From positions 1 to 62,289 of the IMG/VR virus record IMGVR_UViG_3300006921_003544: a DNA stretch of 62,289 nucleotides; one strand, written 5' to 3'. This document shows, one piece after another, positions 32,627 through 61,356 of the stretch; position 1 is the first letter of the stretch; the number at the start of each line of letters is the position of its first letter. The translations under genes and the position numbers were made by a program. Below the pieces are notes generated by a model. The model was not told the origin of the DNA. It searched no databases and saw only the letters and a program-made list of their open reading frames with translations. The DNA comes from a virus (lineage: Duplodnaviria; Caudoviricetes).

Positions 32627-34486
32627 ATGGAAATTTCAAACAAAATTCTATCAGACATTACTGTCTATATGAAGTACGCAAAGTTTATCCCAGACTTAAA
32701 TAGGAGAGAGACGTGGGAAGAGTTAGTAACGCGAAACAAGCAAATGCACCAAAAGAAATATCCAGCTTTGAAGCAAGATATTGAAGATGTGTATAAATTT
32801 GTATATGATAAGAAAATACTTCCTTCAATGAGAAGTATGCAATTTGCTGGTAAACCAATTGAAATTTCTCCAAATAGAGTTTATAACTGTGCATACCTTC
32901 CAATAGATTCAATCGAATCATTTAGTGAATGTATGTTTTTACTCTTAGGTGGAACGGGTGTAGGATATTCAGTACAAAAACACCATGTTGCAACACTTCC
33001 TATGATACAAAAACCATATCCTAAAAGAAAGAAAAGATATCTGATTAGTGATAGTATTGAAGGATGGGCTGATGCAGTAAAAGTTCTTATGAAATCCTAT
33101 ATGAATGGTGGTGGTAGTAGAGTTGAATTTGATTATTCAGATATTAGACCAAAAGGAGCTAGACTTGTAACATCAGGTGGTAAAGCACCAGGACCTCAAC
33201 CACTAAAAGAGTGTTTAGTTAAGATCGATGGAATGTTGAAGGAAAAAGAATCAGGAGATCAACTATCAACGATTGAAGTCCATGACATTGTATGCCATAT
33301 TGCTGATGCAGTTTTAGCTGGTGGTATTAGAAGAGCTGCATTGATTAGTTTATTTAGTGCAGACGATGATCAGATGATTGGTTGTAAAAGTGGTAACTGG
33401 TGGGAATTGAATCCACAAAGAGGTAGAGCAAATAATTCAGCATGTTTAATGAGACATAAAATAACCAAAGACTTCTTTATGGATTTATGGAAAAGAGTTG
33501 AACTATCAGGAGCAGGTGAACCAGGAATTTATCTAAACAATGATAAAGACTGGGGAACTAATCCATGTTGTGAAATTGCATTAAGACCTTATCAATTCTG
33601 TAATTTATGTGAAGTAAATGCGAGTGATATTGACTCGCAAGAAGATTACGAAGCAAGAGTTAAAGCTGCAGCTTTTATTGGAACACTCCAAGCAGGATAT
33701 ACTAATTTTCACTATTTAAGAGAAATATGGCAAGATACTACTGAAAAGGATGCATTGATCGGAATCTCAATGACAGGTATAGGTTCAGGAACAGTTTTAG
33801 GATATGATATGAAATCAGCTGCTAAGATTGTAAAGAAAGAGAATTCAAGAGTAGCAAAGTTAATAGGAATCAAATCATCAGCAAGATGTACCACTGTAAA
33901 ACCTGCAGGTACGACTTCTTTAACATTAGGAACTTCATCAGGTATTCATGCATGGCATAACGATTATTATATTAGAAGAATTAGAGTTGGTAAGAATGAA
34001 TCAATATACAAATATTTATTTGAATTCCACCCAGAACTAGTAGAGGATGAGTATTTCAGTCCGCATGATACAGCGGTAATTCAAATTCCACAAAAAGCGC
34101 CGGAGGGTTCAATATTAAGAACTGAATCTCCGTTTCAATTATTGGAAAGAGTTAAGAAAGTTGCAACTGAATGGGTATCACCAGGACATAGGAATGGATC
34201 AAATACCCACAACGTTTCAGCAACAGTTTCTTTGAGAGATAATGAGTGGGATTATGCAGGAGAATGGATGTGGGAAAACAGAAAACATTACAATGGATTA
34301 TCAGTACTACCATATAATGGAGGCTCCTACACTCAAGCTCCATTTGAAGACATTACAGAAGAAAAATATAACGAGATGTTAAAATCGTTAACTGAGATAG
34401 ATTTATCTAGTATAGTAGAAGAAAAAGATGAAACTGATCTAAAAGGCGAATTGGCATGTGCAGGTGGTGCTTGTGAAATTGTATAA
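32627..34486 (+). CDS. nrdJ: Class II (adenosylcobalamin-dependent) ribonucleotide reductase
   Basis: PSMR, NCAY, GTGVG, GGIRRAA, NPCCEI, CNLCEV, VKPAGT, C-terminal CAGGAC; no nrdB alongside. Confidence 0.9.
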   Translation: MEISNKILSDITVYMKYAKFIPDLNRRETWEELVTRNKQMHQKKYPALKQDIEDVYKFVYDKKILPSMRSMQFAGKPIEISPNRVYNCAYLPIDSIESFSECMFLLLGGTGVGYSVQKHHVATLPMIQKPYPKRKKRYLISDSIEGWADAVKVLMKSYMNGGGSRVEFDYSDIRPKGARLVTSGGKAPGPQPLKECLVKIDGMLKEKESGDQLSTIEVHDIVCHIADAVLAGGIRRAALISLFSADDDQMIGCKSGNWWELNPQRGRANNSACLMRHKITKDFFMDLWKRVELSGAGEPGIYLNNDKDWGTNPCCEIALRPYQFCNLCEVNASDIDSQEDYEARVKAAAFIGTLQAGYTNFHYLREIWQDTTEKDALIGISMTGIGSGTVLGYDMKSAAKIVKKENSRVAKLIGIKSSARCTTVKPAGTTSLTLGTSSGIHAWHNDYYIRRIRVGKNESIYKYLFEFHPELVEDEYFSPHDTAVIQIPQKAPEGSILRTESPFQLLERVKKVATEWVSPGHRNGSNTHNVSATVSLRDNEWDYAGEWMWENRKHYNGLSVLPYNGGSYTQAPFEDITEEKYNEMLKSLTEIDLSSIVEEKDETDLKGELACAGGACEIV

Positions 34487-34548: not shown

Positions 34549-34743
34549 ATGATAAACATGAACGATATGACCAGACGATTGAAGGAAATCGAAAAGGAAA
34601 TAGAGGATTATCAAAACGAATGCAAACACAAAAATCAGACGATCAGGACGGTGAAAGTAGGAGAAACGAGATGGGTATGTGATAAATGCCACATAGCTTT
34701 GAAATGGCCAACACCAACTGAATTAGAAAAATGGATCAAATAA
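34549..34743 (+). CDS. Small Zn-ribbon protein
   Basis: Coiled coil followed by CKH...CDKC; GGAG RBS before ATG 34549. Confidence 0.55.
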   Translation: MINMNDMTRRLKEIEKEIEDYQNECKHKNQTIRTVKVGETRWVCDKCHIALKWPTPTELEKWIK

Positions 34744-35072
34744 AAATTATAAAAATAAAAACTAACGCTCAAAATTTACATGGGTGGATAGCTTTAAGTA
34801 TAACAGATATGCCAGTTGGCCACATCTTTATGAATGAAGATATTGGAAATAAGATTAAATTTCAAGATGCTTGGGTTCATGATGAATATAGAATGAAAGG
34901 AGTTTATACCGCTCTATTCAATACTAGATGGGAATGGGTAAAAAAGAAGTATCCAGGATGGACTGCGTATGCTTGGTGTAAAGACTCAAGTAAACCTCTA
35001 TATTCAAAGAATGGATTTGAAGAAGGTGAGATATGCACCTATATGGAAAAAAAAGTAGATAATGTTGTATAA
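34731..35072 (+). CDS. GNAT-family acetyltransferase
   Basis: WVHDEYRMKGVYTAL acetyl-CoA loop and LYSKNGF. Confidence 0.75.
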   Translation: MDQIKIIKIKTNAQNLHGWIALSITDMPVGHIFMNEDIGNKIKFQDAWVHDEYRMKGVYTALFNTRWEWVKKKYPGWTAYAWCKDSSKPLYSKNGFEEGEICTYMEKKVDNVV

Positions 35073-35125: not shown

Positions 35126-35764
35126 ATGGATTTATTAAAAAAGGCAAATGGTAATCTTCCACGTACGGAAGAGGAAAAACAAAAAATGATAGAACAAGCA
35201 GCTGTACATTACGGACAGTTTCTTGAAGCACTTGGATTTGATTGGAAAGCAGATAAGCATAGCGATCGAACTCCACAAAGAGTTGCAAAAGCGTGGGTAA
35301 ATGATCTAATAATGGGATCGATATCAGAACCGCCAGTCATTACAGCGTTTCCAAATGATGAAGGTTATACTGGTTTGATATGTCAAACACGTATTCCAGT
35401 TATGAGTATGTGTGCACATCACAACTTAACATTCTCAGGAGTAGCTCATGTAGCTTATATTCCAGGAAAATCAAAAAATGATTTGGTAGTTGGTTTAAGT
35501 AAGTTGAATCGTATCGTTGACTTTTATTCAAGAAGACCTAACATTCAAGAATCACTAACAAAACAAATACATGATCACGTTGAGAAATTATGTGAAGGAC
35601 ATAGAGGGGTTGCAGTGGTTATAGAATCACAGCACAACTGTGTGAAGTGTAGAGGTATTAAACATGATTCAGTTATGAAGACTGCTCAAATGTCAGGAAG
35701 ATTTATTGAAACAGAAATGACAAGACAAGAGTTCTTTGCTTTAATTGATCAAAGTAGATACTAA
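35126..35764 (+). CDS. folE: GTP cyclohydrolase I
   Basis: [38 protein letters not shown]. Confidence 0.95.
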
Positions 35765-35766
35765 AA

Positions 35767-36543
35767 ATGGCAATGAAACGAATCACAGATTATGATAAAA
35801 TCTTACCGGTACTAGAAGTATATAGATGTGTTCAATCCGAAGGAAGTAGGTTTGGACGTCCGACAATAGCAGTTAGAACAACCGGATGTACTCACCGTTG
35901 CTACTTTGGTGAAGGAGGATGGTGTGATTCATGGTACACCTCTATACATCCAGAAAAAGGAACATTTACATTTAATGATATAGTCAAAATATATGACGAG
36001 AATCCACAAGTAAAAGAAATGATGTTAACGGGTGGATCACCAACAATGCATCCAGCGTTGGTTAATGAGTTAACACACCTTGCATATGAAAGAAATATTA
36101 TTATCACTATCGAAACTGAAGGATCTCATTATATTGAAACCGATTATCCTATCGACTTGTTGTCTCTTAGCCCTAAGTTTAGTAATTCCGTTCCTGTTGT
36201 TGGGGCTATTACTCCAGCTGGGAAAGTTATTGACGAAAGATTCATAAAGACACATAATAGATTAAGACAAAATACGGATGCAATTAAAAAGATGATAGCA
36301 TTCCATAAAGACTATCATTTCAAACCAGTTTGGGATGGAACAGAATCAAACTTGCAAGAGATAGAAGCATATAGAATTGAGTTGGATATCCCAAAAGATA
36401 AAACTTATATCATGCCTGCAGGTGATACGAGAGAAACGTTAATTGAAATGTATCCGTTAGTATTCGAAATGGTAGCAGAACATGGTTATAATATGACGGG
36501 TAGAGATCATATAGTAGCCTATGACACAGAGAGAGGAGTATAA
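35767..36543 (+). CDS. queE: 7-carboxy-7-deazaguanine synthase (radical SAM)
   Basis: QSEG..GRP..VRTTGC, CTHRCYFGEGGWCD, LTGGSP, IETEG, SLSPK; lies between folE and queD. Confidence 0.9.
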   Translation: MAMKRITDYDKILPVLEVYRCVQSEGSRFGRPTIAVRTTGCTHRCYFGEGGWCDSWYTSIHPEKGTFTFNDIVKIYDENPQVKEMMLTGGSPTMHPALVNELTHLAYERNIIITIETEGSHYIETDYPIDLLSLSPKFSNSVPVVGAITPAGKVIDERFIKTHNRLRQNTDAIKKMIAFHKDYHFKPVWDGTESNLQEIEAYRIELDIPKDKTYIMPAGDTRETLIEMYPLVFEMVAEHGYNMTGRDHIVAYDTERGV

Positions 36544-36544
36544 A

Positions 36545-37033
36545 ATGGCAAAATACCAATCAACAAAACTATTTGATAATTATTCAGTAGCATTAAGACA
36601 GCATAAGGCTGCACATTCACATTGTGAATTACTTCACGGATATGCATTAAAGTTCAAAGTATGGTTTGAATCTAATGAACCATTGGAAGAAAAGCAATTA
36701 GATGAAATGAATTGGATCATGGACTATGGTGGATTCAAAGATACAGATGCAGAACCAACTCCAGGAAATGGATTAAAAAAATGGATGAACCATATGTGGG
36801 ATCATACATGTTTAATAGAGAAAGATGATCCACAGTTAGAATCATTTAAGATGATGGAAGAGTTAGGAGTTTTATCGTTAAGAGTAATGGATAAAATGGG
36901 AGCCGAATCATGTGCTAAATTAGTCTATGATAAGTTTAATGAACGAATGGCTTTGACAGGTGGTGGTAGAGTAAAAGTGGTAAAGGTAGAGTGTTGGGAA
37001 GCTGACAGAAATTCATCAATATACACAGAGTAA
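36545..37033 (+). CDS. queD: 6-carboxy-tetrahydropterin synthase
   Basis: HCELLHGY, WIMDYG, WDH, GAE, VECWE; start at 36545 has a GAGGAG RBS. Confidence 0.88.
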   Translation: MAKYQSTKLFDNYSVALRQHKAAHSHCELLHGYALKFKVWFESNEPLEEKQLDEMNWIMDYGGFKDTDAEPTPGNGLKKWMNHMWDHTCLIEKDDPQLESFKMMEELGVLSLRVMDKMGAESCAKLVYDKFNERMALTGGGRVKVVKVECWEADRNSSIYTE

Positions 37034-37034
37034 T

Positions 37035-37574
37035 ATGAAATTAGAAAAGATATTTAGCATGGAACAAATGATAACACAAGATCAGATTCAATCAAGAGTT
37101 AAAGAATTAGCACAACAAATAGAACAACATGAGGATAAATATAATCACGACCTACCTCCAGTATTCATATGTATTTTGAATGGAGCAGTTATGTTTTTTT
37201 CAGATCTTATGAAAAATTATCATGGACTATGTGAGATGGACTTTCTTAGAGCAAAGTCGTATAATGGAAGAGATAACTCCGGAGGAGTTAAAATATTAAA
37301 GGACATAGAAGTTGCTATTCAAGGAAAAAATGTGTATATTATAGAAGATATTATTGATACTGGTGAAACAATGAAGGAGATATATTTACATCTCAGTTCA
37401 CAATTACCAAGCAGTATCAATATTGTAACATTATTAAAACGAAAGGAAGACGATCATCCAATGGACTTTTATGGGTTCGAAATCAATGACGAATGGGTAG
37501 TTGGTTATGGACTAGACGACAATGGATTGAGTAGAAATCTTCCTGCTATTTACAAATTAGAACAAGGAGAATAA
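37035..37574 (+). CDS. hpt: Hypoxanthine/guanine phosphoribosyltransferase
   Basis: ILNGAVMF, SY loop, PRPP motif IIEDIIDTGET, VVGYGLD, RNLP. Confidence 0.9.
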   Translation: MKLEKIFSMEQMITQDQIQSRVKELAQQIEQHEDKYNHDLPPVFICILNGAVMFFSDLMKNYHGLCEMDFLRAKSYNGRDNSGGVKILKDIEVAIQGKNVYIIEDIIDTGETMKEIYLHLSSQLPSSINIVTLLKRKEDDHPMDFYGFEINDEWVVGYGLDDNGLSRNLPAIYKLEQGE

Positions 37575-37727: not shown

Positions 37728-38222
37728 ATGTTATTAAATGCAAATCAAGTAGAGCAAATGCTTATTACAAATGGTAAAGGTAAGAAAGCTCAAGTAGGTT
37801 ATGATTTAACCGTAACAGATGTAAAATCGATTAGAGGTGGAATGTTATTTGCAGATAAAACGGTTTTAGATCGTTATGATGAAGTTAAGTTAACGACTGT
37901 CGAAAAAGCACAAGGAGATGAGAGAAATGTCTGGGTATTAACTCCTGGAGTTTATAGCGTTACTTTTGAGCAAGGATGTAAATTAGACGATAAGACTACA
38001 GCTTTTATTAGACAGAGATCATCTATTCTAAGAATGGGTGGTACTGTGACTAGCGGTGTATATGATCCAGGATTTGAAGTTGATCAGATGGGAGGTGTAA
38101 TGACACTTACTAAGACTGTTGTATTAGAACACGGAGCTAGACTAGCTCAGATTATAATGTTTGAAAACAATTCTGCTGAACTATACGACGGCCAGTGGCA
38201 AAAAGATAAAGACGTTAAGTAG
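37728..38222 (+). CDS. Trimeric dUTPase / dCTP deaminase family protein
   Basis: GYDL, RSS, YDPGF, GARLAQ, YDGQWQ. Confidence 0.8.
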   Translation: MLLNANQVEQMLITNGKGKKAQVGYDLTVTDVKSIRGGMLFADKTVLDRYDEVKLTTVEKAQGDERNVWVLTPGVYSVTFEQGCKLDDKTTAFIRQRSSILRMGGTVTSGVYDPGFEVDQMGGVMTLTKTVVLEHGARLAQIIMFENNSAELYDGQWQKDKDVK

Positions 38223-38223
38223 T

Positions 38224-38571
38224 ATGAGAACAAATGTTATAGCAAAGTTAGAGATAGAAGGATTACATAATTGGCCAGATGCTCAAAAAGTATTTCCTGA
38301 AGTAGGATTCTTATCAAGTATGCATAGGCATAAATGGTTTATCACTGCTAAGAAAGAAGTGTTTCATGATGATAGAGATGTAGAGTTCATTATGTTCAAA
38401 AGAGATATCGAAGAATGGCTAGGACATCAGTATTATAATCTAAAGTCTAGGACACATGAGTTTGGAGCCAAGTCATGTGAAATGTTGGCGAAAGAAATCA
38501 TGAATGAGTTTGGTTGTTGTTATGTATCGGTATTTGAAGATAACGAAAATGGTGCAGAAGTATATGTATAG
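38224..38571 (+). CDS. dpdL: QueD-like T-fold protein, DpdL-like (candidate CDG decarboxylase)
   Basis: EGLHNW, LSSMHRHKWF (LxxxHRHx-aromatic, as I recall the DpdL signature), SCEMLA, VSVFEDNENGA; sits in a folE/queD/queE operon lacking queC. Confidence 0.6.
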   Translation: MRTNVIAKLEIEGLHNWPDAQKVFPEVGFLSSMHRHKWFITAKKEVFHDDRDVEFIMFKRDIEEWLGHQYYNLKSRTHEFGAKSCEMLAKEIMNEFGCCYVSVFEDNENGAEVYV

Positions 38572-39025
38572 AGATCATATAATATTTGTTGCAGGAACAA
38601 TTTGTAGTGGAAAAACTTATGAAGCTAGATTATTAGCAGAGGATTTAGATTATGATCTCATAGAAATCTCAGATATAGTTAGAGGAATACTAGATACAAA
38701 TAAACGAGACAAACTGCAAGGACATCCAGAACTATCTACACAAATCATTTACCAAATTGGAGAACTCAGACGGACTACGAGGAAGAAAGGGGTGGTAATA
38801 AGTGGACCGAGACAAGTAGAGATCGTATCAGCATATCCAGAAGCAGAAATGATTTGGATGAATACATCTTTAGATATGTGTTTTGAACGATTTTGTAGTA
38901 GAGGAGATTCAAAGGATACTGAATTTGATCGAAATACGTTTGAAGAATATCTACTTAAAGATGATGAATTAGGATTACAAGAAGTTAAACAATATATGGA
39001 AAAGAAAAAATATGAAAAAAACTAA
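38564..39025 (+). CDS. P-loop nucleoside monophosphate kinase-like protein
   Basis: AGTICSGKT P-loop, ISDIVR, ISGPR, ERFCSRG lid-type motif. Confidence 0.7.
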   Translation: MYRDHIIFVAGTICSGKTYEARLLAEDLDYDLIEISDIVRGILDTNKRDKLQGHPELSTQIIYQIGELRRTTRKKGVVISGPRQVEIVSAYPEAEMIWMNTSLDMCFERFCSRGDSKDTEFDRNTFEEYLLKDDELGLQEVKQYMEKKKYEKN

Positions 39026-39857
39026 ATTTGGTTATATAGCTCCGGTAGAGTATTTAGACCTTATACCGGAAGATGCTGATTTTCACTTGATATTAGCACA
39101 TTTACTAAAAGACAAACAATATGCAGCTTACTATAGAGAGAAAGCTGATAGAGGCGATACTATTATTTGTGATAATGGTGCATTTGAATTCAAAAAGAGT
39201 TTAGATCCAGAACCACTTATGAAATTGATATCTGATAGCGGTGTGAAGCCAACTTATGTGGTAGCGCCAGATTATCCATTTGAACCGTGGAGCGTAACAT
39301 ATGATTCAACGGTCAATTTTATTGAAATGGCTAAAGGTGAAGACTATGAGATAATGGCAGTGCCTCAATCAGAGACGGGAAATTATAAAGGATGGTTGGA
39401 ATGTTATAAACGATTAGCAGAACTTCCTGAAGTTAAGGTTATGGGAATGTCTATATTAGGAATTCCTAACGCATTTTGCGGATTAACTGGAACCAAAGAT
39501 ATATCAGCTAATAGAATATTTGCAACTGCTTATATGTGTAGAGAAGGATTAGTTTCTCAAAGAAAAGATCTTTCACATCATTATTTAGGATTAGGAGATG
39601 GTCCAAGAGAATTGATTACTCAAAGAGCCTTAGGTGTAATGGATACCAATGATAGCTCATCACCGTTCTGGCACGCAATCAATGGTGTATTGTTAGATGA
39701 TAGTACAACTGGATTAGTTGGAGGAAAATCGGAATTAGAAGTTGACTTCCACATAGAGAAGGCAGCAAAGAAATTTAGTATTGATAATAAGCAGATGTCG
39801 GTAGAAAAAATGATCAAGTATAATATCGAATGGATGCGTAATATATTGGAGAAGTAG
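39012..39857 (+). CDS. Divergent TGT-fold guanine transglycosylase (DpdA-like)
   Basis: TGT-type motif series ICDNGAFE, APD, AVPQ, HHYLG, DTNDSS; context is a 7-deazaguanine operon. Confidence 0.6.
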   Translation: MKKTKFGYIAPVEYLDLIPEDADFHLILAHLLKDKQYAAYYREKADRGDTIICDNGAFEFKKSLDPEPLMKLISDSGVKPTYVVAPDYPFEPWSVTYDSTVNFIEMAKGEDYEIMAVPQSETGNYKGWLECYKRLAELPEVKVMGMSILGIPNAFCGLTGTKDISANRIFATAYMCREGLVSQRKDLSHHYLGLGDGPRELITQRALGVMDTNDSSSPFWHAINGVLLDDSTTGLVGGKSELEVDFHIEKAAKKFSIDNKQMSVEKMIKYNIEWMRNILEK

Positions 39858-39858
39858 T

Positions 39859-40014
39859 ATGGAACAACCAGATGCAAAGAAACATCAACAGATTAGTTTT
39901 GTTAAATCGGGTATTAGAATATTAGGGTATATCTTTATACCATTTAATGTAGATGTTGCAGTAACACTATTAGTAGTATCAGAAGCAGTAGGAATATTAG
40001 AAGAATTAGTTTAG
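39859..40014 (+). CDS. Small hydrophobic protein (51 aa, absent from the ORF track)
   Basis: Hand translation MEQPDAKKHQQISFVKSGIRILGYIFIPFNVDVAVTLLVVSEAVGILEELV; GGAG RBS; fills the gap before polB. Confidence 0.65.
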   Translation: MEQPDAKKHQQISFVKSGIRILGYIFIPFNVDVAVTLLVVSEAVGILEELV

Positions 40015-40017
40015 GTC

Positions 40018-42531
40018 ATGTATCAAAATATTTATGTAGATTATAAAACTCGTACGGTTCATATATGGGATGATCAATTAGGTCATGTTAAGAATCCGTT
40101 AAGTAAGTATCGATATGCTTATCTCAAAGATCCGAGAGGTCAGAGAAAAGCTATCGATGGTAAGACTGTACGAGTTGTTAAACGATGGTCAGAAGAAGAC
40201 GAACGATCGGGTAAACTATATGAATATGATGTTCCAATGGAAACTAAAGCGTTGATTCACGAATATGGAGATTCGGATTTTCCTTCAACAAATCATAGAG
40301 AAGTATTTTTTGATATTGAAACTGAAATACTACAAGGATTTCCAGATTGGAGAGATCCAATTAACAAGATCACAGCAATAGCTTGGTATGAGCGTTCAAT
40401 AGATAAGTATGGTGTATTCGTATTGGATGAAAAAGACCGTGTCAAAAGTGTATCAAAGGATAATTGTGAAGTTATCATTTGTAAGACTGAAGGAGAACTC
40501 TTATATAAATTCTTAGAAAAATATATTGAATTGGATCCAACTATTCTCACAGGATGGAATATTGAGGGGTTTGATGTACCATATCTTTATAATAGAATAA
40601 AAACTGTACTCGGTGATGATTATGCAAATTCGTTAAGTCCTATAGGAAAAGTTAATTATAGAGAACATTTAGATCGTTATTATATAGAGGGAGTTTCATG
40701 TTTAGATTATCTACCATTGTATCGAAAATATACTATCGGTGAACGATCTTCGTATAGATTAGATGCAATAGGACAGACTGAAGTAGGATTGGGTAAGATT
40801 GAATATGAAGGAACATTAGATGATTTGTTTGAGAAAGATATTGATAAATATATTGAATACAACTTAAATGACGTTGAAATTGTAAAACGGTTGGACGACA
40901 AATTAAAGTTCTTAGATCTAACAAGAGCTATATGCCATAAAGGTCATGTACGATATGAATACATCCATATTACATCTAACTATCTAGAGGGAGCGATTCT
41001 CACTTATTGTAATAGATTGGGAATTGTAACTAAAAATAAACCAGAAAAAAGAAAAAGAGAAGGTAAATTCTCAGGAGCATTTGTCAAGGTTCCTAATCCT
41101 GGCAGATATGATTGGATATATGATTTAGACTTAACATCGCTATATCCATCCATCATTATGTCGCTCAACATAAGTCCAGAAACAAAAATGGGTAAAGTGG
41201 TTGATTGGGATCAAGATGCATTCAATAAAAACAAAGATAGGAATTTTACAGTACAACTCGGTAAAACAAACAAGAAAATGCATATGACCGAATATAAAAA
41301 ATTCGTAGAGGAAAAGAATTATTCAGTATCAGCAAACGGAGTTATGTTTGATAAGTCGCGACCTGGATTAGTGCCATCTATTCTGAATGCATGGTTTCAA
41401 GAAAGAGTCGAGTATAAGAATCTAAGGAAAAGATATGAATCTGAAGGAGATACAGTTAAAGCTGAATTCTACGATCAAAAGCAGTACACTCAAAAGATAC
41501 TGCTTAATTCAATGTATGGTGTATTAGGATTGGCATCTTTTAGATTCTTTGACTTAGACAATGCAGAAGCTGTAACAACAACTGGACAGACGGTTATCAA
41601 GACTACAGCAAAGATAGGTGATCAATATTATAGCAAAGAGTTAGGAAAAGAAAAAGAACATTGTATCTACACAGATACAGATTCAGTATTCTTCTCAGCT
41701 CTTCCATTAGTTAAAAAACGGTATCCAAACATTGATGTGTTTGATGATAAAGTGATGTCTGAAAAGATTCTCATCATAGCAAAAGATGTACAAGATCATA
41801 TCAATACGACTTATGATGTAATGGCAAAGAAATTGTTTAATATCAACGATCATAGATTTGACATAAAGCAAGAAACCATTGCAAAAGCAGGTATATGGAT
41901 TGCTAAGAAAAGATATGCTCAATGGATAATTAACGTTGAAGGACATCCCGTTGATAAATTAGATGTAAAAGGTATTGATGTTGTAAGATCGAATTTTCCA
42001 GCAGCTCTTAGGACCTTTATGGCGGGAGTGTTGCAAGATATTTTACAAAACAAGACAAAAGATTATATAGACAATAAAGTGTTAGACTTCAGACAAGAGA
42101 TAGAAACGCTTCCTATATTAGATGTAGCAAAACCAACTGGTGTAAAAAATATTGAAAAATATACATTAGAGTATGATGGGTCGACTCGCACAGCAACACG
42201 CAAAGGATGTCCAGCTCATGTTAAGGCTGCTATATCATATAACGATATGATTACAGCTTTGAAGCAAACCCATCTTGGAGAGATTAGAGAGAAAGAAAAG
42301 ATCAAATGGGTGTATCTCAAACCAAATCCATATGGATATGATAGTTTGGCATTGAAAGGTTATGATGATCCGATTGAAATAGTTGAGTATATAGAAAAAT
42401 ATATTGATTATAATAAACACTTTCAATCAGATTTGGAAAATAAATTATTGGCTTTTTACACTGCATTACAGTGGGGTAAATTACCAGCTAAAAATACGAA
42501 AATGATTCAAAAATTCTTCGATTTTAGTTAA
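40018..42531 (+). CDS. Family B DNA polymerase (T4 gp43-like)
   Basis: Exo motifs FDIET, GWNIEGFD, YNLND; pol motifs DLTSLYPS, KILLNSMYG, YTDTDS, KKRY. Confidence 0.97.
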   Translation: MYQNIYVDYKTRTVHIWDDQLGHVKNPLSKYRYAYLKDPRGQRKAIDGKTVRVVKRWSEEDERSGKLYEYDVPMETKALIHEYGDSDFPSTNHREVFFDIETEILQGFPDWRDPINKITAIAWYERSIDKYGVFVLDEKDRVKSVSKDNCEVIICKTEGELLYKFLEKYIELDPTILTGWNIEGFDVPYLYNRIKTVLGDDYANSLSPIGKVNYREHLDRYYIEGVSCLDYLPLYRKYTIGERSSYRLDAIGQTEVGLGKIEYEGTLDDLFEKDIDKYIEYNLNDVEIVKRLDDKLKFLDLTRAICHKGHVRYEYIHITSNYLEGAILTYCNRLGIVTKNKPEKRKREGKFSGAFVKVPNPGRYDWIYDLDLTSLYPSIIMSLNISPETKMGKVVDWDQDAFNKNKDRNFTVQLGKTNKKMHMTEYKKFVEEKNYSVSANGVMFDKSRPGLVPSILNAWFQERVEYKNLRKRYESEGDTVKAEFYDQKQYTQKILLNSMYGVLGLASFRFFDLDNAEAVTTTGQTVIKTTAKIGDQYYSKELGKEKEHCIYTDTDSVFFSALPLVKKRYPNIDVFDDKVMSEKILIIAKDVQDHINTTYDVMAKKLFNINDHRFDIKQETIAKAGIWIAKKRYAQWIINVEGHPVDKLDVKGIDVVRSNFPAALRTFMAGVLQDILQNKTKDYIDNKVLDFRQEIETLPILDVAKPTGVKNIEKYTLEYDGSTRTATRKGCPAHVKAAISYNDMITALKQTHLGEIREKEKIKWVYLKPNPYGYDSLALKGYDDPIEIVEYIEKYIDYNKHFQSDLENKLLAFYTALQWGKLPAKNTKMIQKFFDFS

Positions 42532-43312: not shown

Positions 43313-45266
<1,954 letters not shown>

Positions 45267-46707: not shown

Positions 46708-47143
46708 AAGTATAATTGAGCATATCAACAACATAACTGTAAATAAGCTACCAGCAGATAATTACTCAGAGAGTGATTGGAAATCCTGGAGCTCATTTAT
46801 GGTCAGTAGATGGCTCTCTATGAACTCGGGATTATTAGAGTTAGTAAACGAAGTACAATCGCTAAATCTAACAGATAAGAAGCAGTTGTATAAATTATAC
46901 TCAAATATACTTCCTAAGAAAAAAATGTTTAGTAAGTACATAAAAGCTAAGAAGACTGACAAATATCATCCAGAACTAATTACATATCTATCTAAACATT
47001 TTGAGGTAGGAAAAACTGAAATAAAATCATACTTATCGTTGCTTTTTCGAGAAAAAAGGGGGATATTGTATATTGAAAATATACTCAAAACTTACGGAGT
47101 AGATAATAAACAAATTAAAAAGCTGATAAAGATAAAGAAATGA
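46700..47143 (+). CDS. Clamp loader small subunit (T4 gp62-like)
   Basis: FMVSRWLSM...VNE...LPKKKMFSKYIK; close to the gp44-like gene. Confidence 0.65.
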   Translation: MSKSIIEHINNITVNKLPADNYSESDWKSWSSFMVSRWLSMNSGLLELVNEVQSLNLTDKKQLYKLYSNILPKKKMFSKYIKAKKTDKYHPELITYLSKHFEVGKTEIKSYLSLLFREKRGILYIENILKTYGVDNKQIKKLIKIKK

Positions 47144-47478
47144 CTAATAGTAGACAAGAGCTCCAAGCTCAATATCCAGGAATAGCGAAAGCATATGAAA
47201 GAATTCAACTTGAGCAATATGAATTATTTGCAAAAAAGATGATGGACTATGGTAAAGGTAATATATCTGTAGGATCTAATTTAGAAACCGATCAAGAAGT
47301 TCATGTAGCGTTAACTGGTTTATGGTTCAGAATGAATGATAAGATTCAACGACTAAAACAATTAGTCCTACTAAAGAAAGAAGCTAGAGTAGAATCAGAA
47401 TCTATAAAAGATACGTTTCAAGATTTATCTATATATGGAATAATATCACAAATGGTAAGCAATGGCGACTGGAAATAA
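47140..47478 (+). CDS. DUF1599 / nucleotide-modification-associated domain 1 protein
   Basis: KMMDYG, RMNDKIQRL, ESIKDTFQDLSIYGII. Confidence 0.7.
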   Translation: MTNSRQELQAQYPGIAKAYERIQLEQYELFAKKMMDYGKGNISVGSNLETDQEVHVALTGLWFRMNDKIQRLKQLVLLKKEARVESESIKDTFQDLSIYGIISQMVSNGDWK

Positions 47479-49005: not shown

Positions 49006-50487
49006 ATGGAATTAAAAAACTTACCGCAAGGGACGGTTAATGATGTCCCTAAGAAAAAGAAAATTTTATTATTATCAGATGACTTGAGAATGCACTCAGG
49101 CGTAGGAACCGTTTCACGTAATCTCGTGACTGGAACGTGCGACAAATATGATTGGGCTCAACTTGGAGGTGCAATCAAACATCCTGATGGAGGCAAAGTT
49201 GTAGATATTTCAAACGATCTTCGTAAAGAGTCGGGAGTACAAGATGCATATTGTAAAATTTATCCAACTAATGGATACGGAAATCCAGAGATATTACGAC
49301 AAGTAATGGAAATGGAAAAGCCTGACATGATTATACATTTCACAGATCCAAGATTTTGGGAATGGTTATATCAAATGGAACATGAATTAAGACAAACAAT
49401 ACCTTTAGGGTATCTAAATATTTGGGATGACTTACCTTTCCCTCATTGGAATGAAAATGCATACGAATCATGTGATTTACTAATGGCAATTTCAAAACAA
49501 ACATATAATATCAACAAACACGTTTGCCAAAGAAAGCCTAGGATAGAAGGGGTAGATTTGCAATACGTTCCTCATGGAATTGACGAAACAATATTCTACC
49601 CAATACATGAAGACCATCAGGAATGGAATAATATGCAGAACTTCAAGATGTCTTTACTCGAGAACCATTCAGATTGTGATATGATATTTACGTTTAATAG
49701 CAGAAATATCAGAAGAAAGATGGTATCAGATGCATTATTAGCATATCGATTGTTTTGCGACTCTTTATCAAAAGAGGACGCTGACAAATGCTTATTCTTA
49801 TTACACACCGATGTTGTAGATCCTAATGGAACAGATTTAGCAGCATGTGCACGAGCTATTTGTCCAGACTATAAGGTTGGATTCTCATCTCAAAAGATTG
49901 ACGCGACAACGCTAAACTACTTTTACAATATATCAGATTGTGGAGTAAATACCAGCTCAGCGGAAGGATTTGGGTTGAGTTGTATGGAAACTATAATGTC
50001 GGGAACTCCAGTAATTGTAAACACGACTGGTGGATTGCAAGATCAATGTGGTTTTACTAAAGATGACGGTTCTTTAATTAAAGAAACTGACTATAATGAT
50101 AAATGGCCTAGTAATAGTAACGGTCGATATAAAGAACATGGAGAGTGGGCTTTTCCAGTATGGCCACAAATAAACTTACAAGGTTCTCCACAAACTCCAT
50201 ATATCTATGATAGTAGAGCAAGTGTAATAGACATTGCAAAGCGAATGCGTGAGGTATATAAGTTAGGATCTGATGAAAGATCCAAGAGAGGTTTAGCAGG
50301 AAGAAAGTGGGCAATAAATAATGGATTCACAAAAGTTAGTATGTGCAATGATTTGGTACGCTCAATTGAAACATGTTTTGAGAACTTCAAACCGAGAACT
50401 CGTTTTGGTATGATGGATATGTCAACACCAGCACCAACATATCCTGCAGGTATAATTTTTGATAGTATAATAGAGGGAGATAAATAA
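49006..50487 (+). CDS. GT-B (GT4-like) glycosyltransferase
   Basis: SGVGTV, VPHGID, RNIRRK, EGFGLSCME, GGLQDQ. Confidence 0.85.
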   Translation: MELKNLPQGTVNDVPKKKKILLLSDDLRMHSGVGTVSRNLVTGTCDKYDWAQLGGAIKHPDGGKVVDISNDLRKESGVQDAYCKIYPTNGYGNPEILRQVMEMEKPDMIIHFTDPRFWEWLYQMEHELRQTIPLGYLNIWDDLPFPHWNENAYESCDLLMAISKQTYNINKHVCQRKPRIEGVDLQYVPHGIDETIFYPIHEDHQEWNNMQNFKMSLLENHSDCDMIFTFNSRNIRRKMVSDALLAYRLFCDSLSKEDADKCLFLLHTDVVDPNGTDLAACARAICPDYKVGFSSQKIDATTLNYFYNISDCGVNTSSAEGFGLSCMETIMSGTPVIVNTTGGLQDQCGFTKDDGSLIKETDYNDKWPSNSNGRYKEHGEWAFPVWPQINLQGSPQTPYIYDSRASVIDIAKRMREVYKLGSDERSKRGLAGRKWAINNGFTKVSMCNDLVRSIETCFENFKPRTRFGMMDMSTPAPTYPAGIIFDSIIEGDK

Positions 50488-51776
50488 TGAGACCGTTTTT
50501 AATATTTCAAGGACCAGTAGCAACAAGATCAGGATATGGAGACCATGCGAGAGATTTACTTAGAAGTTTAATTGCCATGGATAAATATGATATAAAAGTG
50601 ATTAGTTTGAGGTGGGGTAGTACTCCAATGAATGCACTTACTGAAGATGATAAAGACATTAGCGATTTAATACATCATCAGTCAAGTGGTAATATCCCAA
50701 AGCCTGACATCTTTGTACAACTATCAGTGCCGAATGAATTCCAACCACTAGGACATTATAATATAGGAATAACAGCTGGTATGGAAACGACGTTAGTGCA
50801 CGAAGAATGGATTCAAGGATGTAATAGAATGAATCTTGTAATAGTACCGTCAAAGCATTCAAAGCAAGTATTTATAGACACAGTATATTCACGAATGGAG
50901 AATGGTGTAGAGACAGCAAAATTGCAAGTTACAACGCCAATAGAAGTCTTACTTGAAGGTGTTGATCTAAATACGTATTTTCAAACTGATGAAATTGAAC
51001 CATCTATATCATCTACATTAGATGCGATACCAGAAGACTTTTGCTTCTTGCAAATGGGACACTGGCTAGCAGGTGATCATACACACGATCGAAAAGATAT
51101 AGGAGGGTGTGTAGAATCATTTTGTAAAGCTTTCAATGATAAAAAGACAAGACCAGCGATGATATTGAAGACATCACACGCAACATTTAGTGTGATTGAT
51201 AGAGAGCAGATGCTACAGAAGATCCGAAATATTAGAAATACATTCTCAAATCCACCAAATATATATTTTCTCCACGGAGAGCTAACAGATCAAGAGGTCA
51301 ATTCATTATACAATCATCCAAAAGTAAAAGCAATGGTATCATTTACACATGGTGAAGGATATGGAAGACCGCTAGCTGAATTTAGTACTAGTGGAAAACC
51401 AATCATAGCAACATGGTGGTCAGGACATAAAGATTTCTTAAAACACTCAGTCAGACTTGTCGGTCAATTAGCTGAAGTACATGAAAGTGCAGTTTGGGAT
51501 AAAGTCATACTAAAACAATCTCAATGGTTTTATGTAAATTATAAGTTTGCAATCAAGACTATGAAGGATGTATTTAATAATTATAAAAAAGTATTAGAAA
51601 TAGGACGTAGACAACGTCATTATATCAATAAGATGGGCAATATGGACGTCATGACTAAAATATTTAAGGAAATATTAAAGAAGCATATTCCACAACAATC
51701 TCAACAAATGGAGATGAAATTGCCGTCGTTTGATTCAGTGGAGTTACCAACTCTACAAAAAGCGGGAGAAAAATAA
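50487..51776 (+). CDS. GT-B (GT4-like) glycosyltransferase
   Basis: SGYG, VPSKHS, DRKD, GEGYGRPLAE, SGHKDF. Confidence 0.85.
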   Translation: MRPFLIFQGPVATRSGYGDHARDLLRSLIAMDKYDIKVISLRWGSTPMNALTEDDKDISDLIHHQSSGNIPKPDIFVQLSVPNEFQPLGHYNIGITAGMETTLVHEEWIQGCNRMNLVIVPSKHSKQVFIDTVYSRMENGVETAKLQVTTPIEVLLEGVDLNTYFQTDEIEPSISSTLDAIPEDFCFLQMGHWLAGDHTHDRKDIGGCVESFCKAFNDKKTRPAMILKTSHATFSVIDREQMLQKIRNIRNTFSNPPNIYFLHGELTDQEVNSLYNHPKVKAMVSFTHGEGYGRPLAEFSTSGKPIIATWWSGHKDFLKHSVRLVGQLAEVHESAVWDKVILKQSQWFYVNYKFAIKTMKDVFNNYKKVLEIGRRQRHYINKMGNMDVMTKIFKEILKKHIPQQSQQMEMKLPSFDSVELPTLQKAGEK

Positions 51777-52243
51777 TGAGCAGAGTAAAAATAACATGTC
51801 CAGTAGATGGATTAGGTAATTGTTTCCAAGAGAGATTGGATGAAGGTGATACATATATGTCATTCGATTGTGGATACGCATCTAATGAACATTATAAAAT
51901 AGGATCAGAAGCAGTGGAAGCTGTACTATCAAAAGCACCACAATTGGTTCAAGATTTAGCATTCGAAGATGAAGCAAGAGGGATTGTCTGGATCCCATCA
52001 GTAATACAAATTCCAAATAAAGGTATAGTATTCCCCGATGGTGAAAACAAAGATAGGTGGGGATATAGATTTGCAGCAGAAATAGAGATCCCAGAAGATG
52101 AACAAAAGGATTGGCCAATTGAAGGAAAAGACGGTGAATTCTATAAAGCTAGATTAGATATGGAAAATAGTACATCATACGAAAGTTGGCAGTTTGCAGA
52201 CGCAATTGCTAATTTAGGATTAGTATTAGATGAGGTAAAATAA
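51776..52243 (+). CDS. Hypothetical protein
   Basis: 155-aa ORF, TAATG-coupled. Confidence 0.6.
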   Translation: MSRVKITCPVDGLGNCFQERLDEGDTYMSFDCGYASNEHYKIGSEAVEAVLSKAPQLVQDLAFEDEARGIVWIPSVIQIPNKGIVFPDGENKDRWGYRFAAEIEIPEDEQKDWPIEGKDGEFYKARLDMENSTSYESWQFADAIANLGLVLDEVK

Positions 52244-52863
52244 TGCATCCAGGAATACATTCTAAAGTAAAATTTTCATTAAATAAGACAAAGGTACAAC
52301 CGGGAATGATTGTTGAATTCATGTACCAAAGCTCGTATAATAGAACTGGAAAGAGACCAACAGGTCCGAGAAACGTAAAACGGTTACTATGGGTTTTGGA
52401 TCCATATTTTGGAAGACAGCAAGGTGGAGGAGATGATGTAGATTCTCGTGGATTTTATATGTGGGGAATAGATTTAGAAAAAATATCAGCACCTCTATTC
52501 GTCCAGTTAGGACCAAAGAAATATGGTATTGAGTATTGGGGACCAAAACCAGGAGAACCAATTGCAAAAGGATCATCGGTAAAACAGACTCTAAAGTTTC
52601 CACATATTATTCCAATCATCGATGTCCCAGGACAGAATGGCCAAGCTAAATGGGCAGCTATTAAAGGTCAAAAAATGTTAGTAGAGAATTATAGAAGTTA
52701 CGATATTGATAGAATCAAAGGGTGTCAGGTAGTGCAATATAATTTTACTGATTCAAAATTCAAGGTCAACCTATCAGGAAAGTCTACAACATCTATGCCA
52801 AAAACGGGTGATGTAGATATAGGAAAAGGTGCATCTTCAAAATTTACTGCAGGATTACAATAA
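52243..52863 (+). CDS. Hypothetical basic protein, weak resemblance to T4 gp2 DNA end protector
   Basis: PGMIVEFMY...WGIDL...YRSY pattern; resemblance only. Confidence 0.4.
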   Translation: MHPGIHSKVKFSLNKTKVQPGMIVEFMYQSSYNRTGKRPTGPRNVKRLLWVLDPYFGRQQGGGDDVDSRGFYMWGIDLEKISAPLFVQLGPKKYGIEYWGPKPGEPIAKGSSVKQTLKFPHIIPIIDVPGQNGQAKWAAIKGQKMLVENYRSYDIDRIKGCQVVQYNFTDSKFKVNLSGKSTTSMPKTGDVDIGKGASSKFTAGLQ

Positions 52864-52876
52864 AAGGAAATAGGTT

Positions 52877-53500
52877 ATGAAAATCAGTTATGCGATACTG
52901 GCATGTAATGAAGCTAAAGAGCTGAATGAGCTCCTAACAGCATTAGTTACAGATATCAGAAAGTTAGATGAAATTATAGTTGTATTGGATGAAACTAATC
53001 ACAGTAAAAAAGTACAATTCGTATGTGAATCATATGCTAGAGATAATTCTCTACAATGGTTTACACATCCTCTTAATAAAGACTTTGCAGCACAAAAGAA
53101 TTTTCTAACAAGTAAGTGTTCTGGAGATTGGATTATAAATTTAGATGCAGATGAGTTGCTAACACCAGATTTAATTCGTATATTACCACAAATAATCGAA
53201 ATGAATGAAGAAGTGGATGCTGTGTGGATGCCAAGGATAAATACTGTAGAAGGAATAACACCAGAACATGTTGAAAAATGGAATTGGCAATTAAATGATA
53301 AAGGTTGGATCAATTGGCCAGATGCGCAAATGAGAATGTATAGGAATAACGGATTTATAAAATGGACACAACCTGTACATGAAAGGTTAGTAGGACATAA
53401 GTCTTTTGGTAGACTTCCATTCGATCCAAAATATGCTATACATCATCACAAGACAATTTCAAAGCAAGAATTGCAAAACGAATTTTATAGAGGAATATAA
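52877..53500 (+). CDS. GT2-family glycosyltransferase
   Basis: ISYAI..CNE, DFAAQKN, LDADE, WPD.Q.R, VHE. Confidence 0.88.
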   Translation: MKISYAILACNEAKELNELLTALVTDIRKLDEIIVVLDETNHSKKVQFVCESYARDNSLQWFTHPLNKDFAAQKNFLTSKCSGDWIINLDADELLTPDLIRILPQIIEMNEEVDAVWMPRINTVEGITPEHVEKWNWQLNDKGWINWPDAQMRMYRNNGFIKWTQPVHERLVGHKSFGRLPFDPKYAIHHHKTISKQELQNEFYRGI

Positions 53501-54375
53501 TGAAAGATTTGGTTATAGGTGCAATTGGTGATTACCAATTCGATCAAATTCAAAATTGGGTAAATTCATTAAATCAAAGTGGATTCGAAGGAGATAAGAT
53601 TTTGATATCGTACAATTCGAATCAAGAGCTTGTTGAGAAATTAACTGAAAACGGTATCGAAGTTTACAGCATGCATGCTGATGCTAAAGGACAACGAGTA
53701 GAACGATTTATAACGAATAGTGGTGAAGTAAATGCATCAAATGCTCATTTATTGGTACATAATGTAAGATTCTTTCACATGTGGCAATTATTAAAACAAT
53801 TTCAAACAGAAGGACGAACATTCAAAAGAATAATCCACACAGATGTAAGAGATGTTATATTTCAAAATAACCCAAGTGATTGGTTAGATATGAATATGAG
53901 ATCTGAAATTGTATCACCATCAGAAAGTGTAAAGTATTGGGATGAACCTTGGAATAGAGATAATTTTAGAAGATCGTTTGGAGATGTAACTTTTATGTTC
54001 CAAGCTCATGAAATGTTAGTATCCAATGTTGGATCATTTGCAGCTAAATATGATACTGGAATTGATCTATGCCTTCACATATACTTGCTAACAGTCGGAC
54101 AGTGGCACACAGATCAACCAGCTTTCAATCTTATAGTCAATACTGTATATAAGGATAGAACTCAGTGGGCAGGAACGAAAGAGCATTGGGCTGCACAAAT
54201 AGGAGCTTTGATTGAAGCTAGACCTAAACTAGGAGATGCAGTTTTAGAACCAGCTCCAACAATGAATGAGGATGGATTAGTAGTAAACGAAAATGGTAAT
54301 GTATTTCCACTACTACATCAATATGAACGAGTACCTGGATGGTATGATAAACTTACGGAAAAATATTCAAAATGA
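53500..54375 (+). CDS. GT-A-like putative glycosyltransferase
   Basis: TDVRDVIFQ.NP, DQPAFN, HQYER; cluster context. Confidence 0.6.
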   Translation: MKDLVIGAIGDYQFDQIQNWVNSLNQSGFEGDKILISYNSNQELVEKLTENGIEVYSMHADAKGQRVERFITNSGEVNASNAHLLVHNVRFFHMWQLLKQFQTEGRTFKRIIHTDVRDVIFQNNPSDWLDMNMRSEIVSPSESVKYWDEPWNRDNFRRSFGDVTFMFQAHEMLVSNVGSFAAKYDTGIDLCLHIYLLTVGQWHTDQPAFNLIVNTVYKDRTQWAGTKEHWAAQIGALIEARPKLGDAVLEPAPTMNEDGLVVNENGNVFPLLHQYERVPGWYDKLTEKYSK

Positions 54376-55070
54376 AGTATTCGATTATAATCACATATAG
54401 GGATCGTGAGGAACATCTTAAAAAATTACTACCACGATTAGAGGAAAGATTCAAAGGAACAGAATATGAGATCATTATATCAGAACAGTTGAGTGATGGT
54501 AAATTTAGAAAAAATACATTATACAATATAGCAGGTGATTATGCAAAAGGCGACACTCTAATATTTCACGATGTAGACCACTACCCATCAGATAATGTAT
54601 CGTATGATGTTGTAGATAATAAGCCAACATATCCAGTTAGGAATGTTGTGTTTTTAGATAAAGATGATCAACCGGTAGGAAGAATGCATGTGCCATTAGG
54701 GTATAATAATTTTCACATTGATGTGGGTGATCACTCTGGAGGAGTATTTATTCTTTCACGTGAGCATTGGAATACAATGAAAGGTCTGAATTCAATGTAT
54801 GTTGGTTGGGGTAAAGAAGATGATGATACCCGTGCAAGAGCTCGACATAAACTGCAAACGGATTGGCATAGAAATAAAGATGGAAAATTTTACGCATTCC
54901 ATCATGAAGACAATAAACCACTAGACACGGATCCAGACTTCATAAATAATGAAAAACTTCTACATGAAGGTGGACAATATGCAGATGTTGATTTCAGAAT
55001 AGAAGATTCTAAAGAACAATTTGATATACATAATAACGGACGAATAGTATGGATAAAAGTACATATATAG
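54372..55070 (+). CDS. GT7-like (beta-1,4-galactosyltransferase-type) glycosyltransferase
   Basis: YRDREEHL, FHDVD, GG, GWGKEDDD. Confidence 0.85.
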   Translation: MKYSIIITYRDREEHLKKLLPRLEERFKGTEYEIIISEQLSDGKFRKNTLYNIAGDYAKGDTLIFHDVDHYPSDNVSYDVVDNKPTYPVRNVVFLDKDDQPVGRMHVPLGYNNFHIDVGDHSGGVFILSREHWNTMKGLNSMYVGWGKEDDDTRARARHKLQTDWHRNKDGKFYAFHHEDNKPLDTDPDFINNEKLLHEGGQYADVDFRIEDSKEQFDIHNNGRIVWIKVHI

Positions 55071-57043: not shown

Positions 57044-57784
57044 ATGAAGCAAATTAGAAATTGGTTAAATGATTATTTAATTGAAAATAACTTAAAAACA
57101 TTTGTAATAGGAATATCAGGTGGTATCGATTCTGCATTAACATCTACAATATGTGCAGAAACGGGACTAAACACTATCGTAGTTTCAATGCCAATACATC
57201 AACATCCAGATCAACTATCTAGAGCTCATAGACATATTAAATGGCTAAAGGATAAGTACAGCAACGTTTCAAGTATAGAGATAAATTTATCACATGTATA
57301 TGATACTTTTGAAATGATGTTTGCTGATAATGAAAACAAACTTGCATTGGCAAACTCAAGAGCAAGATTAAGAATGACTACTTTATATCAAATAGCTCAA
57401 ACTAATAATGGATTAGTAGTAGGAACGGGAAACAAGGTAGAAGATTTCGGAGTTGGATTCTTTACAAAATATGGTGATGGAGGAGTTGATATATCTCCAA
57501 TAGCTGATTTAATGAAATCGGAAGTTAGAGAGATGGCGAAGGAGTTAGAAATTATAGATGAGATTATCAAAGCTAAACCAACAGATGGTTTATGGGGAGA
57601 TGATCGGACAGATGAAGACCAATTAGGTGCAACATATGATGAGTTGGAATGGGCAATGGGATATGAAGAAGGCTTTACATTATCAGAAAGACAACAAGAA
57701 GTTTTAGATATATACAATAAATTTAATAAACAGAACCAACACAAAATGGTAAATATACCAGTTTGTAAAATAAGGAGAGCGTAA
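57044..57784 (+). CDS. nadE: NH3-dependent NAD+ synthetase
   Basis: GISGGIDSA, NSRARLRM, GTGNKVE, FFTKYGDG, PTDGLW, TDEDQLG, HK. Confidence 0.92.
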   Translation: MKQIRNWLNDYLIENNLKTFVIGISGGIDSALTSTICAETGLNTIVVSMPIHQHPDQLSRAHRHIKWLKDKYSNVSSIEINLSHVYDTFEMMFADNENKLALANSRARLRMTTLYQIAQTNNGLVVGTGNKVEDFGVGFFTKYGDGGVDISPIADLMKSEVREMAKELEIIDEIIKAKPTDGLWGDDRTDEDQLGATYDELEWAMGYEEGFTLSERQQEVLDIYNKFNKQNQHKMVNIPVCKIRRA

Positions 57785-57785
57785 A

Positions 57786-61355: not shown

Positions 61356-61356
61356 A

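Follow-up and report, generated by a model that had tools for sequence, protein, structure and literature searches.

The window analysed here is the whole 62,289-nucleotide stretch of IMG/VR record IMGVR_UViG_3300006921_003544, an uncultured viral contig (Duplodnaviria; Caudoviricetes) with an estimated completeness of 32%. At 39012-39857 on its plus strand, an open reading frame (ORF) with an ATG start encodes a protein of 281 amino acids plus stop; the opposite strand is closed. Sequence comparison places the product as a divergent member of the DpdA3 subfamily, already named with protein CGPG_00065 of Cellulophaga phage phiST as its founder (Hutinet et al., 2023; PMC10516641). New here are this divergent member, an analysis of the gene module around DpdA3, and a reading at the level of nucleotides: the gene context suggests, with a probability that we put at about one half, that DpdA3 exchanges the base of a free dG nucleotide rather than of DNA. 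Annotation of the window by Pfam and by pairwise comparison with phiST proteins gives the following gene cluster:

35126..35764, plus strand: FolE, GTP cyclohydrolase I (PF01227, E 6.9e-46)
35767..36543, plus strand: QueE-like radical SAM protein, 7-carboxy-7-deazaguanine synthase (PF04055, E 2.1e-7; position and size as phiST QueE)
36521..37033, plus strand: QueD, 6-carboxy-tetrahydropterin synthase family (PF01242, E 4.8e-11)
37035..37574, plus strand: HPRT-like phosphoribosyltransferase (PF00156, E 2.9e-22)
37728..38222, plus strand: dCTP-deaminase-like/dUTPase-fold protein (PF22769, E 1.1e-13; PF00692, E 1e-5)
38224..38571, plus strand: DpdL, a QueD paralogue (38% identity to phiST CGPG_00067, E 4e-24; motif LSSMHRHKW)
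38504..39025, plus strand: AAA_18 P-loop small kinase (Pfam AAA_18, E 8.5e-8; 30% identity to phiST CGPG_00066, E 4e-14)
39012..39857, plus strand: DpdA3, predicted 7-deazaguanine transglycosylase, 281 amino acids (from fold, phiST homology and a conserved Asp pair)
39859..40014, plus strand: hydrophobic ORF of 51 amino acids and unknown function, between DpdA3 and the polymerase (no Pfam match)
40018..42531, plus strand: family B DNA polymerase, PolB (PF00136, E 4.3e-44; PF03104, E 1.4e-21)

The cluster resembles that of phiST in having a nucleoside triphosphate pyrophosphatase, DpdL, an AAA_18 kinase, DpdA3 and a small ORF in this order, behind a base pathway without QueC; no QueC reached the cut-off in the window, the record being about 32% complete. 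Because this is the phiST arrangement, the cluster is predicted to specify DNA containing 2'-deoxy-7-deazaguanosine (dDG). Unlike phiST, the window has a pyrophosphatase of the dUTPase fold instead of MazG, and a phosphoribosyltransferase in addition. The kinase and pyrophosphatase that the original prediction had placed beside the gene are thus the AAA_18 protein, whose ORF overlaps the start of DpdA3 by 14 nt, and the dUTPase-fold protein. The latter also matches a "probable dUTPase" in the PDB (9w59, E 2.3e-6) and is proposed to be a dGTP (dNTP, deoxynucleoside triphosphate) pyrophosphatase, while the kinase, with a likely start at M16 (38549) and conserved G..CSGK and G.RQ motifs, is proposed to act as a (d)NMP kinase on the modified nucleotide. 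In the published text, homologues of CGPG_00066 are stated to be absent from other 7-deazaguanine phages (Hutinet et al., 2023); one is found in the window, and an AAA_18 gene occupies the equivalent position in Chryseobacterium phage MA9V-3. A complex prediction pairing DpdA3 with this kinase gave a score of 0.00 and no answer, which is uninformative either way. The DpdL ORF has no Pfam match; its motif can be set beside the LxxxHRHxF signature described for DpdL (Hutinet et al., 2023), and a role as 7-carboxy-7-deazaguanine decarboxylase is proposed. The 51-residue ORF has phmmer matches in 7 of 80 related loci, with its position conserved only in two of them (L003 and L004). PolB is the enzyme that would have to use a modified dNTP.

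The phosphoribosyltransferase could possibly serve the salvage of released guanine or the formation of a ribotide from 7-deazaguanine (DG). Its second possible role underlies an alternative that we regard as improbable, namely that it makes a DG ribotide which then passes through a kinase, a ribonucleotide reductase and the polymerase, leaving DpdA3 only to clear residual G from the DNA or the pool. A divergent class II-like ribonucleotide reductase is indeed encoded at 32627-34486, followed by a small GNAT acetyltransferase (34731-35072), both directly upstream of the deazaguanine cluster, and homologues of the phosphoribosyltransferase lie near DpdA3 in related loci. Such homologues were found, however, at no more than 12 of the 80 loci, each of these 80 having DpdA3; DG as a substrate of such an enzyme is purely putative, and by the published account DpdA3 is the gene that marks every phage in which 7-deazaguanine replacement is full (Hutinet et al., 2023).

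The original prediction described the 281-residue protein as a compact, divergent base-exchange barrel related to tRNA-guanine transglycosylase (TGT) and DpdA, on the strength of five motifs in the expected order and of missing C-terminal zinc-binding cysteines. The motifs are present in that order (DNGAFE at 54, APD at 85, VPQ at 117, HHYLG at 189 and DTNDSS at 211), and the only cysteines are C53, C131, C156 and C176, with none after residue 176. The structural zinc motif CxCxxC is missing from the window protein and from all members of a DpdA3-family set (0/123). Structure prediction bears out the barrel. An AlphaFold2 model built on an alignment with 46 homologues reached a predicted local distance difference test score (pLDDT) of 95.8 and a predicted template modelling score (pTM) of 0.92, and the 50 best matches listed by Foldseek against the PDB were all tRNA-guanine transglycosylases (E 1.7e-8). 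Superposition with VIA-align on Pyrococcus arcTGT and Zymomonas TGT gave Z 17.6 and a root-mean-square deviation of 3.6 Å over 243 residues. In the BFVD structure database the second match was phiST protein M4SLA5 (TMq 0.78), followed by several phage "queuine tRNA-ribosyltransferases". As modelled, the window protein is therefore a TGT-type (beta/alpha)8 barrel, and its base-exchange activity is predicted.

Sequence-only searches, in which Pfam, NCBIfam and the PDB were queried by phmmer and hmmsearch with the single protein and two profiles, gave no link to TGT. The TGT family PF01702 matched neither the DpdA3 protein nor the window above cut-off, and at E <= 0.01 it matched 2 of 123 DpdA3 relatives only. 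This carries no weight, because PF01702 also misses the validated DpdA1 of Enterobacteria phage 9g; for the phiST founder, HHpred is reported to give 98.8% to PF01702 (Hutinet et al., 2023). The matching PHROG (20335) is of unknown function, weak matches to DUF4369 and to inorganic pyrophosphatase fell below cut-off and were taken as chance, and an 8-kb megablast query had no match in the phage collection.

Homologues of the protein are numerous and mostly unnamed. A search returned 200 matches at E <= 0.001, chiefly metagenomic, and 1214 cluster representatives were matched among 1.84 billion sequences. Among 50,697 phage records, tblastn matched 10, including phiST and relatives, MA9V-3, Vibrio phages D479 and Bakedbeans, Aeromonas phage Ahp1 and Rhizobium phage RHph_I1_18; all the matched proteins are annotated as hypothetical or DUF3310. 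The phiST match is CGPG_00065 itself (26% identity over 78% of the query, E 3e-18). A profile of 123 diverse relatives reaches Campylobacter phage CP220 protein CPT_0056 (E 3e-46), DpdA3 being reported from Campylobacter phages (Hutinet et al., 2023), and finds nothing in the deoxyinosine (dI) phage NCTC12673. The phiST, CP220 and window proteins form one family that is coherent by profile hidden Markov model (HMM) and share a length class. A quick FastTree phylogeny of the 123 relatives and five phage proteins splits into two main halves, of which one holds phiST, MA9V-3 and CP220 and the other the window protein, whose clade of 11 members also includes D479 and RHph_I1_18; the 26% identity to phiST and this separate branch, the latter from FastTree only, mark the window protein as divergent.

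All 123 diverse homologues keep four residues unchanged (D54, R168, H190 and D214), and conservation reaches 90% or more at N55, E59, D87, Q119, L192 and G193. Conservation of this degree indicates that the motifs are more than chance. An hhalign comparison with Tgt from gammaproteobacteria (81 sequences) gives a weak match (probability 16%, E 0.0016), in which D54, D87, Q119 and D214 correspond to D89, D143, Q187 and D264 of E. coli Tgt. With the DNA-guanine transglycosylase DpdA1, represented by six sequences (gp03 of phage 9g and its relatives), the probability is 93.4% (E 2.4e-7), and D54, D87, H190 and D214 pair with D72, D114, H196 and D215. Both putative catalytic aspartates, as the original prediction had supposed, thus align with the TGT active site. 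In bacterial DpdA (bDpdA), an enzyme acting on DNA, their equivalents Asp95 and Asp256 have been proposed as acid/base and nucleophile, respectively (PMC10164549). In DpdA3, D54 would be the acid/base and D214 the nucleophile forming a covalent ribosyl intermediate, with D87 and Q119 as the likely base-reading residues.

The protein shares with bacterial and archaeal TGT (PF01702) and with bDpdA the (beta/alpha)8 barrel, the Asp pair and the base-binding Asp and Gln. Unlike TGT, it has no PF01702 match and no CxCxxC, and is about 90 residues shorter; TGT, which acts on tRNA, and bDpdA, which acts on DNA, carry extra insertions, and bDpdA needs the DpdB ATPase according to its published description (PMC10164549). 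DpdA1 is closer: the motifs DxGAF and DSS(S)W align, the proteins are compact (300-318 amino acids), and the six aligned sequences, read by eye, have no TGT-type CxCxxC. A classical TGT-like modification of host or phage tRNA, or a barrel without catalysis, is very unlikely. The fold is that of the tRNA enzymes, but the zinc motif is absent, comparison with TGT reveals no PUA or other tRNA-binding domain, DpdA3 is always accompanied by DNA-replication and nucleotide genes, and it is present in CP220, a dADG phage, while absent from NCTC12673; the invariant Asp pair argues for catalysis.

What accompanies DpdA3 was examined from annotated gene order in isolated phages. In phiST the order is MazG, DpdL, AAA_18, DpdA3, whereas Vibrio phage D479 has DpdA3 followed by a T4-type deoxynucleoside monophosphate (dNMP) kinase (PF21448) and then a dCTP-deaminase-like (DCD-like) gene. 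D479 (OZ195776.1) has two dUTPase-fold genes, at 126633-126923 and 49092-49511, so that its canonical dUTPase is separate from the DCD-like gene adjoining DpdA3. In RHph_I1_18 a 422-residue DpdA3-DUF3310 fusion precedes the DCD-like gene, while in MA9V-3 a DCD-like gene lies about 2 kb upstream, followed by AAA_18 and DpdA3. CP220 has a fusion of HD and AAA_33 domains, DpdA3 and an AAA_28 protein, and this three-gene island is surrounded by genes for capsid, sheath and tube. In the T7 nucleotide kinase gp1.7, which is reported to phosphorylate dTMP and dGMP (PMC7693777, PMC11897194, citing Tran 2012), Pfam assigns residues 122-184 to DUF3310 (E 4.5e-23).

A census of uncultured viral loci extended these observations. 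It covered 5 kb around the gene, used HMMs whose seeds had been checked with Pfam, since fusions merge DpdL, MazG and DUF3310 as well as AAA_28 and dUTPase, and dereplicated loci at 80% identity. Set 1, the window's half of the DpdA3 tree, went from 80 loci to 47; set 2, the other half, from 173 loci to 103 clusters, 102 of them usable; and a DpdA1 control from 85 loci to 35. A P-loop kinase or a DUF3310 protein was counted as kinase-like:

DpdA3 set 1: pyrophosphatase-like 45/47, kinase-like 40/47, both 38/47, neither 0/47
DpdA3 set 2: pyrophosphatase-like 68/102, kinase-like 53/102, both 36/102, neither 17/102
DpdA1 control: pyrophosphatase-like 3/35, kinase-like 0/35, both 0/35, neither 32/35

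Within 5 kb of DpdA3, set 1 has a homologue of the window's dUTPase-fold protein at 45 of 47 loci and DpdL at 42. Three genes to each side suffice to find a DCD-like gene at 41 of the 47 and DpdL at 36, together with a DUF3310 protein at 26 (25 of them at position +1) or an AAA_18 kinase at nine; DUF3310 and AAA_18 never co-occur in this set. Among the DpdA3 loci as a whole, parts of the module are also fused, as MazG-DUF3310 (two cases), DpdL-MazG and AAA_28-dUTPase (L244:4420-5001, L291:3104-3817, L292:4120-4992 and L300:3435-4463). At six DpdA3 loci a protein of the PF18909 dATP/dGTP diphosphohydrolase type or of DUF1599 lies directly upstream of DpdA3 (position -1). DpdA3 is thus flanked by dNTP-hydrolase genes of unrelated folds (dUTPase/DCD, MazG, HD and PF18909/DUF1599) and by unrelated kinase types (AAA_18, PF21448, AAA_33, AAA_28 and DUF3310).

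DpdA1 loci carry FolE, QueD, QueE and (Gat-)QueC, but no kinase-like gene. An unbiased Pfam scan of the control, covering 100 of 182 neighbour-cluster representatives (multi-member clusters and singletons of about 100 amino acids or more), found FolE, Gat-QueC, QueE, QueD and ArcS-like proteins, and among these 100 no dUTPase, DCD, MazG or HD domain and no nucleotide kinase. One control locus carries a nucleoside 2-deoxyribosyltransferase gene (L370:3129-3527) about 1.5 kb from its DpdA1 gene.

Several other features of these loci were recorded. A 370-residue ORF in L008 and L020 (6729-7841 in each) is an apparent fusion of an AAA_18 kinase with GTP cyclohydrolase I (FolE). A fusion of family A DNA polymerase with a uracil-DNA glycosylase domain (L338:2523-4871 and homologues) occurs in 62 of 102 set-2 loci, usually directly downstream of DpdA3. 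DUF1599 (nucleotide modification associated domain 1) has a weak match in the window, in a 112-residue ORF at 47140-47478 (E 4e-5), and stands directly upstream of DpdA3 in several set-2 loci. Further along the window, GroES and GroEL homologues (43313-45266) lie just downstream of PolB and a clamp-like ORF; related contigs have GroES in 8 of 80 cases and GroEL in 7. A large sugar-metabolism block (49006-62121) holds several glycosyltransferases, a B12-binding radical SAM protein, an NAD synthase-like PP-loop protein, UDP-glucose dehydrogenase, an epimerase and a PfkB kinase, and may constitute a second glycosylation system, for DNA or for the surface.

What, then, is the substrate of DpdA3? 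The favoured reading is that of a first TGT-fold transglycosylase working on a free deoxynucleotide, in the reaction dGMP + 7-deazaguanine -> dDGMP + guanine; dGMP is the best guess, and dG and dGTP are also candidates. FolE, QueD and QueE would convert GTP to 7-carboxy-7-deazaguanine, which DpdL would decarboxylate to DG. The dUTPase-fold enzyme would hydrolyse dGTP to dGMP, draining the dGTP pool too, and DpdA3 would swap guanine for DG by the double-displacement chemistry of TGT. The AAA_18 kinase and host NDK would then phosphorylate dDGMP again, and from the resulting dDGTP the phage PolB would make fully DG-substituted DNA; the neighbouring phosphoribosyltransferase could salvage the released guanine. 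What this analysis shows is a fold, a family, a set of conserved residues and a gene context, whereas chemistry, substrate and every neighbour's role in this scheme are predictions.

Bacteriophage T4 has a pathway made up of a dCTPase (gp56), a dCMP hydroxymethylase (gp42) and a dNMP kinase (gp1). The proposed route is like it in logic only, in that a canonical dNTP is hydrolysed to the dNMP, which is modified and then phosphorylated again by a phage kinase. None of the proteins is related to its counterpart, and base exchange differs from base substitution, so that the likeness is one of analogy, not homology.

The argument for nucleotides as both substrate and product is that genes of unrelated folds occupy the hydrolase and kinase positions around DpdA3 and that parts of the module are fused, as would be unexpected for an enzyme acting on DNA. 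The canonical dUTPase that D479 has besides its DCD-like gene also speaks for this reading. Three published observations fit it. Replacement of guanine is complete in phiST (by dDG), in CP220 (by dADG) and in a phage of Flavobacterium; attempts in E. coli with members of DpdA3 and DpdA4 were unsuccessful, with no dDG detected on co-expression of dpdL and its dpdA; and an ADG nucleoside was detected in infected Campylobacter (Hutinet et al., 2023). In the literature searched, which did not extend to the supplements of PMC10516641 (DpdA3 members and neighbours), no nucleotide-level role for DpdA3 and no analysis of the module was found; "ddG" in PMC13697223 denotes ddGTP and is irrelevant.

The published proposal is that DpdA3 acts after replication (Hutinet et al., 2023), flipping each G out of phage DNA and inserting DG, with the pyrophosphatase and kinases serving general nucleotide supply. 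We rank this below the free-nucleotide reading and consider it a serious possibility that nonetheless falls short of even odds. Its strengths are the profile similarity to DNA-acting DpdA1 (93.4%), the use of the equivalent Asp pair on DNA by bDpdA (PMC10164549) and the set-2 loci that have neither neighbour class within 5 kb (17/102). It leaves unexplained, however, the recurrent non-homologous pyrophosphatase and kinase neighbours, their fusions and the CP220 island among structural genes. Complete replacement is reported only with DpdA3, whereas the DNA-acting subfamilies modify 0.1-30% of G, as DpdA1 does after replication, and the failed E. coli tests include the pairing of dpdL with dpdA (Hutinet et al., 2023). 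In addition, bDpdA is described as having a structural zinc site and an Ins1/Ins8 DNA-binding crescent (PMC10164549); the zinc motif is absent in DpdA3. The isoelectric point (pI), with a median of 5.87 for the DpdA3 family vs 5.97 for TGT, is uninformative as a proxy for DNA binding.

Several points weigh against a free nucleotide as substrate. Every characterised member of the superfamily acts, to our knowledge, on a polynucleotide, and the closest validated relative by profile, DpdA1, is DNA-acting and equally compact. The original prediction had taken the small size of the protein as leaving room for a dG nucleotide. This argument fails, because DpdA1 of phage 9g and its relatives is as small; the nucleotide substrate itself, still an inference, has gained comparative-genomic support from the neighbours, the fusions and the census. 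In set 2, besides the loci with neither neighbour class, 49 of 102 have no kinase-like gene within 5 kb. The census HMMs were built from DpdA3 neighbours, and in the contrast with DpdA1 genome size is a confounder, the control being one narrow clade of phages of about 60 kb with few nucleotide-metabolism genes. The status of DUF3310 as a kinase is uncertain: the domain spans residues 122-184 of the 196-residue gp1.7, is also fused to MazG, and the assignment is extrapolated from one protein. The DCD-like gene of RHph_I1_18, finally, is the only dUTPase-fold gene found there and may be a housekeeping dUTPase.

By the published account, no phages other than those with DpdA3 are known to replace every guanine with a 7-deazaguanine, and all such modifications have been taken to be post-replicative (Hutinet et al., 2023). 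The conserved three-part module of dNTP hydrolase, DpdA3 and nucleotide kinase, whose flanking parts each come in several unrelated folds and in fused forms, points instead to a route through the nucleotide pool. If this is true, complete replacement of G would be explained by a modular pathway that runs before replication, from a dGTP pyrophosphatase through the base exchanger to a dNMP kinase, with the pyrophosphatase and kinase parts repeatedly swapped between unrelated folds. It would also represent a new enzyme activity for the TGT fold, and would offer an enzymatic way to 7-deaza-dGTP analogues.

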